This document shows positions 22,528 to 48,285 of a DNA stretch of 64,000 nucleotides, piece by piece. Both the position numbers and the translations under genes were made by a program. A model generated the notes under the pieces. That model was not told the DNA's origin, searched no databases, and saw only the letters and a list, made by a program, of their open reading frames with translations. Numbering within the stretch: position 1 is the stretch's first letter; every line of letters starts with the position of its first letter. The stretch lies in the sequence record PX441839.1. One strand, 5' to 3'. The DNA is from a phage.

Positions 22528-22538
22528 GTGGTAAAATA
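22528..22538 (+). promoter_or_regulatory. extended -10 promoter element (GTGGTAAAATA)
   Basis: recurring TG-n-TAAAAT/TAATAT motif about 25 nt upstream of operon start. Confidence 0.4.
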
Positions 22539-22560
22539 TAGAATATTAACAGGAGGTAAT

Positions 22561-23208
22561 ATGCTTGAAATTTTAACATCCTCTGGAACAAGGCCACCAG
22601 AGGACGAGGTTCTTTTCCTTTTTGATGCAGAGATGCAAAATGAAGGAGATACCGTGATGATTGACCAAGTATCCAAGAACACCCTAGCCCAGCGCCTGGC
22701 GACTTACGCTGGACATCCGTCATATCCCAACAGGATAGTAAACCATGCGGATTACGGAATGGTATTCTCACTTGGTGGGAACTTTTACCATTGGACTTCA
22801 AACTGGTTCAAGCCCCCTGAGAATATACCACCAGGAAAGAAACTGGTGTATCAGATTGAGTTTGCCTCCCCTGTCACAGGGTATTGTTTTGGAACAGGTG
22901 GTCACTTAACAGGGAGCACATGGTGGTTAGGCTTAGAAATTAGCAAGTCAACAACATACGGTATGACCCTAATATCCAGCAGAACATCATCTTCTGGAGC
23001 TTCTACAACCATCCCAGGAGATAACCTGATGCAGGATATCCGTGTTGAGTACATAACAAACACAACTATTCTTGCAAGAAGGGAAGGTTTTTCTGGAACG
23101 GGTGGTCCTTACACTCATGATCATAACTTTTTCACGAATATCTATATTTTTGGTGGACCACGGGATGCATCCGGTATGGGACAGCCAGAACTTTATACGG
23201 AAACCTGA
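22561..23208 (+). CDS. hypothetical protein (about 215 aa)
   Basis: ORF track 22414..23208; ATG (MLEILTS) after AGGAGG. Confidence 0.5.
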   Translation: MLEILTSSGTRPPEDEVLFLFDAEMQNEGDTVMIDQVSKNTLAQRLATYAGHPSYPNRIVNHADYGMVFSLGGNFYHWTSNWFKPPENIPPGKKLVYQIEFASPVTGYCFGTGGHLTGSTWWLGLEISKSTTYGMTLISSRTSSSGASTTIPGDNLMQDIRVEYITNTTILARREGFSGTGGPYTHDHNFFTNIYIFGGPRDASGMGQPELYTET

Positions 23209-23239
23209 AAAGAGTTAAAGTTTCTTTGGAGAAAAGATA

Positions 23240-23608
23240 ATGAATTACCTTTTAAAGTACAAGAAGTATATTTTCGGGGCAACATTGGCTATTTTGATAA
23301 TTCTGTCTGCGAATATGTACATCAGTTCGGTAGATAAGAAGGCCCACGCTAGAGGTTTTGAAGAGGCAAACTCTGCATGGATGGTCAAAGGAAGGCAATA
23401 CGTTGATCTCTTGGACCAGTCGTACAAAGAAAATAGAGAACTGAATTACGAATTGAACAAGGCAACCAGGCAGGATGCTAAGAAGGACCAAGATAGAAGG
23501 TCTAAGACTGCCGCCGCTCAAGTTGACCTTGCAAGAGATCCTTCTGCTAATTCCAAAACCGTCAGTGACAAGTTTGTAGATCTCTATAACGTATCTTTGG
23601 GGGAATAA
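23240..23608 (+). CDS. putative i-spanin (inner-membrane spanin component)
   Basis: N-terminal transmembrane helix FGATLAILIILSANMYI then charged coiled-coil region; directly followed by a lipoprotein gene. Confidence 0.45.
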   Translation: MNYLLKYKKYIFGATLAILIILSANMYISSVDKKAHARGFEEANSAWMVKGRQYVDLLDQSYKENRELNYELNKATRQDAKKDQDRRSKTAAAQVDLARDPSANSKTVSDKFVDLYNVSLGE

Positions 23609-23928
23609 TGAAGAAGAGATTCTTAGGGGTTATCCTTGCCTCGGTAATCATAATGGGTTGCTCAAATAATAAAGAGATTCCAGATGTTCAGTTGGCAGAA
23701 ATTACAACCGAGAAATTGATAGACAAGCCCAATCCAGAGTTAATGGAGGATTTACCTCAGAAGACAAAACTGGAAAGAGGTATGAGTGAAGGAGAGGTTG
23801 GGGAAATTATCAGCAACAATAACCTTCGTGCAGGGACCATAGAATGGAAATATGAAGCACTCCAGCAGTATGTCTGCAACATATTTAAAGAACCTGTCGG
23901 AGAGGTTTGTACAAAAGGAGATAATTAA
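23608..23928 (+). CDS. putative o-spanin (outer-membrane lipoprotein)
   Basis: lipoprotein signal LGVILASVIIMGC with lipobox Cys; ATGA overlap with upstream gene. Confidence 0.45.
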   Translation: MKKRFLGVILASVIIMGCSNNKEIPDVQLAEITTEKLIDKPNPELMEDLPQKTKLERGMSEGEVGEIISNNNLRAGTIEWKYEALQQYVCNIFKEPVGEVCTKGDN

Positions 23929-24452
23929 TGCTTGAGATGATGATTGCAAAAGGGGGTGAAAAATCATCAGGTTCTCCTATGGACTATGCTCAGTTTTTAA
24001 ATTGGTTGCAGAATAACAATATAAGGGCTGTTACAGCAAGAAGATCCTCAGAGGAGAGAGTTCTCCCTATACAGGAAGCCCTTGAATTCACATACTCAGC
24101 AGGTACATTCATAGAGAGCGGAACCATGTGGGGAAGCCCCTACTCCACTAGGGTGACGTATGACTCAATGTGGCAGTATGTGGCGCGACACTGTTTTCCA
24201 AACTTATCTTTATATGAAAGAGAGCGGCAGGTAAACAGGCTGGTTCTTCTTAAGAAAACAGCCACGGTCAATTATCCAGACTATATATCGGTAAACCGGA
24301 ACGGTTTTCAGAGTGCCAGTTATGGCAATTACCTTGGATTTTTCGTTACACATTTTGTTTATTATGATGAATCGTCTAAACTGATGAGGGTAGTAAAACC
24401 ATCTCAAGGTTATATTGGGAGTGGTGCCCTTTTTACAGGCGAGTTCGACTAA
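23928..24452 (+). CDS. hypothetical protein (174 aa)
   Basis: ORF track; ATGA overlap with o-spanin; no catalytic motif recognised. Confidence 0.45.
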   Translation: MLEMMIAKGGEKSSGSPMDYAQFLNWLQNNNIRAVTARRSSEERVLPIQEALEFTYSAGTFIESGTMWGSPYSTRVTYDSMWQYVARHCFPNLSLYERERQVNRLVLLKKTATVNYPDYISVNRNGFQSASYGNYLGFFVTHFVYYDESSKLMRVVKPSQGYIGSGALFTGEFD

Positions 24453-24461
24453 CCATGTTCA

Positions 24462-47000: not shown

Positions 47001-47009
47001 GGTTACTTT

Positions 47010-47657
47010 ATGGCTTCCGTAGATCGTTATGATGCTGCATATAATGTGTTTATCAGCAGGTATGTTAGAAACAACCTTCATACAAACATACGTGGAAAGG
47101 TTGTTGGGGTAGATTACAGTGGACCATCAGTAGATGTTCAACCAATGACCTATACCCAATTCCCATCAGGGACAAAAGATTCCTATCCTGTTATTTATGA
47201 TGTCCCCATTCTCCTTCCTTCTGGGGCAAATGGAAAGGCCAGGTTGACAATGCCTATCAAAGTTGGGGATATAGTTGGCCTGTCGTTTTCAGAGAGAAAC
47301 GAGAGCGATGTCATGGATATGAACACCCACCAGCTATTCCCAGGTTGGGCAGTGACTCAAATATTCACAGACGGGAACAGGAAACCAATAGACCCTGATA
47401 ACGTTGTCCTTGAGAACGATAAGTCGATTATGACCTATAAGCCAGATGGGACTATGACATTCAAAAACCCTTCTGTCAACATCGAGGCAAAACCAAACGG
47501 CCAGGTCTTTGTGAATGGCTGTGAGATAACCCCTGACGGAAACGTGATAACCAGGGCTGGTGTGAACCTTAATGAATTTTGGCAGAAATATGTATCTCAC
47601 GTCCACCCAGGTGTCCAATCAGGCGGGTCTTCAACTCAGCCAACAACACAAGTTTAA
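47010..47657 (+). CDS. baseplate central spike protein (gpV-like)
   Basis: 215 aa with C-terminal HVHPG (HxH) motif as in P2 gpV-type spike tips. Confidence 0.5.
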   Translation: MASVDRYDAAYNVFISRYVRNNLHTNIRGKVVGVDYSGPSVDVQPMTYTQFPSGTKDSYPVIYDVPILLPSGANGKARLTMPIKVGDIVGLSFSERNESDVMDMNTHQLFPGWAVTQIFTDGNRKPIDPDNVVLENDKSIMTYKPDGTMTFKNPSVNIEAKPNGQVFVNGCEITPDGNVITRAGVNLNEFWQKYVSHVHPGVQSGGSSTQPTTQV

Positions 47658-47666
47658 GGAGATTAT

Positions 47667-48191
47667 GTGGCTACAAATTTCGTCGATTTTGCTCTGGACC
47701 CTTTGACAGGGGATCTTGATTTCTCAGGACAGGCTATCAACCTAATTGAGTCCAATCAGTTGTCCCTGAGGCAGAGGCTGTACCTCAGGTTTGCGGTATG
47801 GGCAGGAGATTGGTGGTTTGATGAAACTTTCGGATTTCCATATAGAGCCTTTATTTCGAAAAAGACCATCAAATCAGTTCTTGACGGCAGAATAAAATCT
47901 GAGGTGAGAATGGAACCTGATGTCATGGAGATATCTGAGTTCCGGTCTGAGATGGACGTTGTCAACAGGACATATCAATGTTTCTTCACTGTCGTTACCC
48001 AAGAAGGTATTGAGGTGAATATGGCCTTTATGGGCCAAGACAACTTCGAATACCCAACACCTCCAGAAAGTAACGTATCTCTGTGTGGTGATGAGGGAGT
48101 TGTAATCCAGTTCAAGAATAAACTGTACTACTTAATAAACTTCCGTTTACCATCCTATGGTGATGCCACTTGGGTAAATACTTGGAAATAA
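47667..48191 (+). CDS. baseplate wedge protein (gp25/gpW-like, putative)
   Basis: GTG start after AAGGAG; LRQRLYLRFAVWAGDWWFDETFGFPY resembles gp25-like core. Confidence 0.4.
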   Translation: MATNFVDFALDPLTGDLDFSGQAINLIESNQLSLRQRLYLRFAVWAGDWWFDETFGFPYRAFISKKTIKSVLDGRIKSEVRMEPDVMEISEFRSEMDVVNRTYQCFFTVVTQEGIEVNMAFMGQDNFEYPTPPESNVSLCGDEGVVIQFKNKLYYLINFRLPSYGDATWVNTWK

Positions 48192-48198
48192 TAATAAA

Positions 48199-48224
48199 GG
48201 GAGCTTCGGCTCCCTTTTCTTTTA
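48199..48224 (+). terminator. rho-independent terminator
   Basis: GGGAGC-TTCG-GCTCCC then TTTTCTTTT. Confidence 0.6.
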
Positions 48225-48285
48225 ATTCGTATCTGAATATGATAAAATACGACTATCGCCTAATTTAGGAGCACAGGAGGAGACT

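Follow-up and report, generated by a model that had tools for sequence, protein, structure and literature searches.

Extended −10 motifs upstream of late operons in an rV5-like phage resemble promoters of the host sigma-70 polymerase

Layout of the late region and its promoter-like sites

The DNA considered here is a stretch of 64,000 nucleotides (nt), hereafter the window, from sequence record PX441839.1, which belongs to an rV5-like myophage (Vequintavirinae), and our subject is a short motif, TGGTAAWAT (W being A or T), that recurs in front of its structural operons. A 24-kb stretch of the window is ~90% identical to Salmonella phage SSBI34 (Vequintavirinae), with more distant matches to Certrevirus-like, Seunavirus and Vequintavirus phages; the encoded proteins are 42–60% identical to those of rV5, and the lineage lies nearer to Certrevirus. 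Genes for replication, recombination and nucleotide metabolism occupy a minus-strand arm at 1–15070, followed by a plus-strand arm from 15381 to 59613 with genes for nicotinamide adenine dinucleotide salvage, ten transfer RNAs (tRNAs), spanins, terminase, head, tail, baseplate and fibre proteins, while a second minus-strand arm begins at 59659. The ten tRNA genes (plus strand, 20173–22358) directly precede the terminator T1 and the promoter P1 listed below, and an Rfam scan of the window returned nothing beyond tRNAs.

The original prediction had placed the motif at six sites in the late part of the plus-strand arm. All six are real, and their coordinates agree within 1–2 nt, the one at 48240 being a variant, TGATAAAAT; a conserved seventh site at 27614 had been overlooked, as had the occurrence of the exact motif in coding repeats. 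Together with the neighbouring terminators (folding free energies, ΔG, in kcal/mol; fractions give matches to the −35 hexamer), the seven sites are as follows.

22488–22516, plus strand: terminator T1, a 9-base-pair stem and T-run (ΔG −18.4), ending the tRNA cluster region 19 nt before P1
22529–22537, plus strand: P1, extended −10 TGGTAAAAT, its −35 position inside the T-run (TTTTTT, 2/6)
24461–24496, plus strand: terminator T2 (ΔG −19.0), hairpin kept in relatives, 18 nt before P2
24508–24516, plus strand: P2, extended −10 TGGTAATAT, −35 TTTATT (3/6), before the large terminase gene (24560–26044) and the portal gene
27594–27622, plus strand: P7, TTGCAA-17-TAAAAT with TGT, TGTTAAAAT at 27614, kept in 15 of 15 orthologous regions
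37209–37235, plus strand: terminator T3 (ΔG −12.7), 30 nt before P3
37236–37264, plus strand: P3, −35 ATGACT (4/6), 17-nt spacer and TGGTAATAT at 37256, before gene 37290–37820 (phrog_2663, function not assigned)
37834–37862, plus strand: P4, TTGATT-17-TAAAAT with TGG, TGGTAAAAT at 37854, before the Neck1/tail-completion gene (37883–38344), with no terminator in front
44728–44753, plus strand: terminator T5 (ΔG −16.0), after the tape-measure gene, 19 nt before P5
44766–44774, plus strand: P5, extended −10 TGGTAAAAT, −35 position TTTTTT (2/6), before the Dit-like gene (44794–45675) and the baseplate hub and spike genes
48196–48226, plus strand: terminator T6 (ΔG −14.7), 23 nt before P6
48240–48248, plus strand: P6, extended −10 TGATAAAAT, −35 TTTTAA (3/6), before the baseplate wedge gene (48286–49773) and the tail-fibre genes

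At all seven sites TG stands at −15/−14, one base before the hexamer, and it is kept at orthologous sites. At the six predicted sites the distance from the end of the motif to the start codon is 24, 44, 26, 21, 20 and 38 nt (starts at 22561, 24560, 37290, 37883, 44794 and 48286), so that the spacing of about 20–45 nt claimed beforehand is measured as 20–44 nt, and a Shine-Dalgarno sequence precedes the start codons downstream. A G+C-rich hairpin with a T-run (ΔG −12.7 to −19 kcal/mol) precedes five of these six intergenic sites by 18–30 nt, the site without one being 37854; the expectation that the motif usually follows a terminator is thus borne out at five of the six sites, or five of the seven promoters.

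The operon behind P1 comprises 22561–23208 (function not assigned), two Rz-like spanin genes (23240 and 23608) and 23928–24452, and the SSBI34 counterpart of P1 is TGTTAAAAT at the same place. An alternative promoter overlapping P1, TTGGCA-17-TAGAAT, was rejected because SSBI34 loses its T−7 yet keeps TGnTAAAAT. P7 lies upstream of a prohead-protease-like gene (ATG at 27642), with the decoration and major capsid genes next in line, and has no preceding terminator.

Frequency, conservation and distribution of the motif

Exact matches to TGGTAAWAT number eight in the window, all on the plus strand, whereas shuffled sequences contain 1.37 on average and never more than 4. Five are intergenic (22529, 24508, 37256, 37854 and 44766), as is the variant at 48240. 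The matches at 56041, 56440 and 56638 are exact TGGTAATAT copies lying in one reading frame of a 1162-residue tail-fibre open reading frame (ORF; 53576–57064), where they encode a repeated ..VTA(T/S)GNI.. peptide, and we rejected them as promoters since they are a coding repeat of the fibre gene. A hand estimate puts the expected number of exact matches at ~0.015 for the late intergenic DNA (1,366 nt), which contains five (Poisson p ~5e-12). Motif discovery had been suggested as a check, and an unbiased enrichment of 6- to 9-mers in the same 1,366 nt returned the motif words TAAAATA/GGTAAAAT beside the terminator words GCTTCGG and TTTTTTA, and these only. The generic form TGnTAnnnT is absent from the late intergenic regions 30749–30868, 35814–35870, 39377–39479, 41932–42017, 52455–52494 and 57065–57114, two of which hold other conserved elements (see the last section).

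For comparison we used the late regions of SSBI34 (its whole genome pieced together from four loci), PVP-SE1, rV5, UPEC06, two Stephanstirmvirinae phages and 26 IMG/VR contigs, the last retrieved by way of the Neck1 protein. At orthologous positions TGnTAnnnT is maintained in about 30 relatives: it is present, within ~85 nt of the start, in 89 of 107 orthologous upstream regions (83%), as against 12% of random 76-nt windows. The genes footprinted in this way are those for the terminase, the protease-like protein, the product of 37290, Neck1, the Dit-like protein and the baseplate wedge. The motif is kept while its flanks diverge and while the downstream proteins, Neck1 among them, are 44–77% identical. 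P4 is the most conserved site, with TTG(A/C)TT-N17-TAAAAT and TGG upstream of Neck1 in 25 of the 26 IMG/VR contigs, and in one lineage it reads as a near-perfect TTGAAA-17-TATAAT with TGG. Hexamers found at orthologous sites are TAAAAT, TAATAT, TATAAT, TACAAT, TAAGAT, TAACAT and TAAACT. In the phi92-like and phAPEC8-like phages every exact match to the motif lies within ORFs, and one orthologous site there carries TTGACA-18-TAAAAT with TGA. The TGG/TAAWAT spelling is a local flavour of the generic TGnTAnnnT and no separate signal.

Position counts were taken from 61 non-identical orthologous contexts, in which the search pattern had fixed T−12, A−11 and T−7 and had left −6, −8, −10, −13, −16, −17 and the −35 region free. 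A purine occupies −16 in 60 of the 61 contexts and T occupies −17 in 37 (the TRTG form), while A is found at −10, −8 and −6 in 56, 59 and 46, respectively. TTG at −35/−34/−33 is seen in 46, 58 and 42 contexts, which corresponds to an exact 17-nt spacer; among background TGnTAnnnT matches in the window, TTG stands at the same place in 2% and a purine at −16 in 47%. Position −13 is free (G31, A16, T8, C6).

The early and middle arms use a different kind of promoter, TTGACn-N16-18-TATAAT/TATACT, often with A-rich upstream sequence and never with TG in register, found at 2485, 9215, 10959, 15137 and 61368 on the minus strand and at 19152 and 19380 on the plus strand. Counting sense intergenic sites of the window, a status judged by hand against start codons and relatives, the late block has none of the TTGACn-N16-18 sites versus seven elsewhere, and seven of the TGnTAAWAT sites versus two elsewhere (Fisher p = 0.003). 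The −35 matches are 2–4/6 at most late sites of the window as against 5–6/6 in the early class. Of 24 sense −35/−10 promoters in the SSBI34 genome, 22 fall in the early/middle blocks; all 24 lack TG and all are absent from the structural region, which has counterparts of all seven TG sites. TGnTAAWAT sites outside the late block are those at 60911 and 796 in the window and at 90569 in SSBI34.

The motif is not new to the subfamily, and our finding rediscovers a published prediction for rV5. Running MEME on the DNA in front of the late genes of rV5, Kropinski et al. (2013) found TggTAaAAtA eight times (PMC3606486, Additional file 4, Table S4C), likened it to the T4 late promoter and noted the lack of gp33, gp45 and gp55 in rV5; two of their late sites double as listed sigma-70 promoters with a TTGACA or TTGACT −35 (PMC3606486). 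The rV5 sites P056, P048 and P036 correspond in position, as orthologues, to 37854, 44766 and 48240, and P036 reads TTGACT-17-TAAAAT with TGG. Sites in the window match the rV5 motif, lie upstream of late morphogenesis genes and stand at orthologous positions, so subfamily, motif and location are shared. The two analyses differ in that the rV5 paper rested on MEME in one genome and an analogy with T4, whereas here a footprint across ~30 relatives favours a sigma-70 extended −10 element.

Probable recognition by the host polymerase and competing explanations

Sites of the TGGTAAAAT type are probably promoters of the host sigma-70 holoenzyme that have an extended −10 element and head seven late operons. 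Host RNA polymerase would recognise TRTGn and TAAWAT, together with a weak or partial −35 located 17 nt upstream, and the seven promoters would split the late plus-strand arm into spanins, terminase/portal, head, a gene without assigned function, neck/tail, baseplate hub, and baseplate wedge with fibres. At five of the seven, transcription would restart 18–30 nt past an intrinsic terminator, and because the restart sites sit so close behind the terminators, the terminator T-run fills the −35/upstream position. Predicted transcripts start ~7 nt past the hexamer, which would give leaders of 13–37 nt carrying the ribosome-binding site. Initiation at these sites, sigma-70 as the recognising subunit and the lateness of the operons are what we infer from this arrangement.

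The host-polymerase reading, already part of the original prediction, draws its support from the constrained and free positions, which behave as for sigma-70, and from TTG at the 17-nt spacer. A purine at −16, T−17, A−8 and TTG at this spacer form the contact pattern of sigma-70 regions 2.4, 3.0 and 4.2. Consensus-like sigma-70 versions also occur among the relatives, namely the TTGAAA-17-TATAAT of P4 in one lineage and the TTGACA/TTGACT at two rV5 sites. The seven sites appear to qualify as members of the sigma-70 extended −10 class by their TG, their T−12/A−11/T−7 hexamer and a weak −35 at 17 nt. That class has been described as TGnTATAAT with a TRTGn variant (Mitchell et al. 2003, summarised in PMC3950348), and the window sites share with it the TG one base before TAnnnT, the weak or absent −35 and the 17-nt spacer where a −35 is present; they are unlike it in that the hexamer is biased to TAAAAT/TAATAT and not TATAAT and in that this phage favours G at −13. 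The early and middle arms of the window, in turn, carry the Certrevirus early promoter AAAA(N4)TGTTGAC(N17)TATAAT (Buttimer et al. 2020, PMC7344957), as exemplified by the minus-strand sites 2485, 9215, 15137 and 61368, and that promoter is unlike the late class in its strong −35, the lack of TG and its absence from the structural region.

Several points weigh against recognition by plain sigma-70. The 61 contexts are related by descent, and their counts overstate independence. The late class has A at −10 (TAAAAT/TAATAT) in 7/7 window sites and 56/61 contexts from relatives, as opposed to T in 19/24 promoters of the early class in SSBI34, and such class-specific spelling is not predicted by plain sigma-70 recognition. 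Unmodified host polymerase would be expected to use such a promoter as soon as infection begins, and this is hard to square with late genes. Pfam and PHROGs are blind to novel factors, so that a divergent gp55/gp33 analogue could escape them, and the searchable literature yielded no transcriptomes, mapped 5′ ends or in vitro transcription for the Vequintavirinae.

Late timing and the separate late spelling (A at −10 and −6, distinct from the early TATAAT class) would both be accounted for if TGGTAAAATA were a phage-specific late promoter, read by the host core polymerase with a phage late specificity factor much as gp55 of T4 reads TATAAATA, the likeness to sigma-70 promoters being incidental; the poor −35 (2–4/6) at most window sites and the analogy drawn by the rV5 authors point the same way. 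We consider this unlikely. The T4 late promoter, which works with gp55, gp33 and gp45, is similar in being a short A+T-rich −10-region motif before late genes and dissimilar in sequence, and a T4-like late promoter as such was rejected, as the sites, TG(G/A/T)TAA(A/T)AT(A/G), have no ungapped match to TATAAATA and homologues of gp55 and gp33 were not found. Moreover, relatives differ freely at −13 and in the central bases of the hexamer while the sigma-70 contact positions are fixed, the TTG that the search did not impose is seen at the 17-nt spacer in 46, 58 and 42 of 61 contexts versus 2% of the background, consensus sigma-70 promoters exist among the orthologues, and homologues of gp55, gp33, sigma factors or RNA polymerase were found neither in the window nor in the rest of SSBI34 nor in rV5. 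Specifically, searches of ~55 window proteins (PHROGs and Pfam) for homologues of sigma factors, gp55/gp33, AsiA and RNA polymerase found none, nor did Pfam find these families in 145 further ORFs of SSBI34, and the papers on rV5 and CB7 likewise point to no recognisable phage sigma or RNA polymerase factor; the sole hits of the sigma/anti-sigma search were a phrog_639 "transcriptional regulator" protein and a zinc-ribbon protein. That the motif is not a promoter at all, and is instead a chance A+T-rich word, an RNA signal or the site of another DNA-binding protein, is highly improbable: the three exact copies in the coding repeat do show that the 9-mer alone is not diagnostic, and against this stand its enrichment, strand bias and fixed distance to start codons, its conservation amid diverging flanks and the TTG co-occurring 17 nt upstream. 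An RNA role is unlikely because the motif, if a promoter, sits upstream of the predicted transcript start.

The problem of timing can also be met by refining the host sigma-70 reading without replacing it, and our leading guess for the delay is a phage factor that disables −35 recognition. An early phage protein, not recognised so far, might block sigma region 4 or the beta-flap, silencing the −35-dependent early and host promoters while leaving the TG-dependent late ones, and it might aid read-through of the many terminators with no promoter behind them. Precedents are gp39 of Thermus phage P23-45, which blocks −10/−35 promoters, spares extended −10 middle/late promoters and also antiterminates, and T4 AsiA, under which extended −10 promoters are spared and −10/−35 promoters blocked. 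Both systems are like the present one in having phage early and host genes on −10/−35 and later genes on extended −10 promoters, and in their terminator-rich late operons; they are unlike it in that no gp39 or AsiA homologue or analogue was detected among the window proteins and SSBI34 ORFs. The clean partition of the two classes between early/middle and structural regions, these precedents, and five late terminators (31442, 34770, 35814, 42198 and 57065) that run directly into promoter-less genes make such a switch a tentative possibility by analogy. It is opposed by the usable −35 kept at P4, P7 and the rV5 sites P036 and P051, an element that would lose its purpose under such a factor, by the TGnTAAWAT sites outside the late block (60911, 796 and, in SSBI34, 90569), and by the finding that the window proteins and SSBI34 ORFs include no detectable AsiA-like or RNA-polymerase-binding family, although binders of sigma region 4 and the beta-flap are small and fast-evolving and a missing Pfam/PHROG match says little about them. 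For the Vequintavirinae as a whole, a temporal switch through a small phage inhibitor of −35 recognition that perhaps promotes read-through, with the TAAAAT spelling tuned to the modified polymerase, is a conjecture that we regard as doubtful.

Apart from the 117-residue protein matching phrog_639 (9578–9928, minus strand; E = 2.6e-20, no Pfam match), the window showed no candidate regulator.

With host sigma-70 recognition as the preferred reading, the ambiguity left by the rV5 work is settled at the sequence level, as the motif behaves like a host sigma-70 extended −10 element and not a T4-like late promoter. The result is a usable operon map of the late region, with seven promoters and about twelve terminators, and it makes testable how late timing arises in a large phage that encodes no recognisable RNA polymerase or sigma factor. 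The compact, conserved terminator–promoter modules may also be of use for phage engineering in a subfamily that is relevant to therapy.

Further putative promoters and conserved elements

Two further sites resemble the late class. On the minus strand and not in the late arm, 60887–60919 carries a putative promoter of the late class (TTGCAA, 16-nt spacer and TAATAT with TGA, TGATAATAT at 60911); it is conserved in SSBI34 and precedes a gene for a 399-residue protein (59659–60858, phrog_4477, function not assigned) that is convergent with the fibre genes. At 53292–53320, TTGATA-17-TAAAAT with TGT, likewise conserved in SSBI34, has a TG that belongs to the ATG of gene 53311–53583, and may be an internal promoter for the gene of the 1162-residue fibre protein or a coincidence. 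The minus- and plus-strand arms are separated by a divergent A+T-rich intergenic region of 310 nt (15071–15380) with three copies of TATAAGATC (15173, 15203 and 15289) and promoters in both directions, which might serve in regulation or as an origin.

Strong intrinsic terminators without a promoter, each followed directly by a ribosome-binding site and a gene, lie within the late arm at 31442–31481, 34770–34810, 35814–35870, 42198–42236 and 57065–57114, so that the genes downstream would need read-through.

Upstream of the tail sheath gene, 39377–39479 holds a conserved, structured element of ~90 nt common to the Certrevirus-like and Seunavirus-like relatives, composed of a 13-base-pair hairpin (GGTTATTGATAGGC/GCTTATCAGTGAC), a G+C hairpin in which compensatory changes have altered five pairs on both sides, a GCAC...GTGC hairpin and, lastly, the invariant GTCAATAAYYG. 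This last part could alternatively pair with the first arm (GGTTATTGA). The element has no Rfam match and no TGn promoter. The stretch separating the terminator behind the major capsid gene from the following gene (30783–30868) holds another conserved element, of ~45 nt, in which CTGTACA-N13-AAATAGTGTACCATTRTAAGATA takes the place of a TGn promoter; Seunavirus-like relatives have TGATAAACT at the same position. This element might act as a regulated promoter or bind a protein.

Finally, the gene at 35871–37203, for a collagen-like fibre protein with G-X-Y repeats, contains an in-frame TAG (36543–36545) where SSBI34 has GAG. The collagen repeats go on past this TAG and a frameshift follows; the in-frame stop of SSBI34 is another one, located further along. 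A decaying gene, sequencing errors or read-through could account for this.

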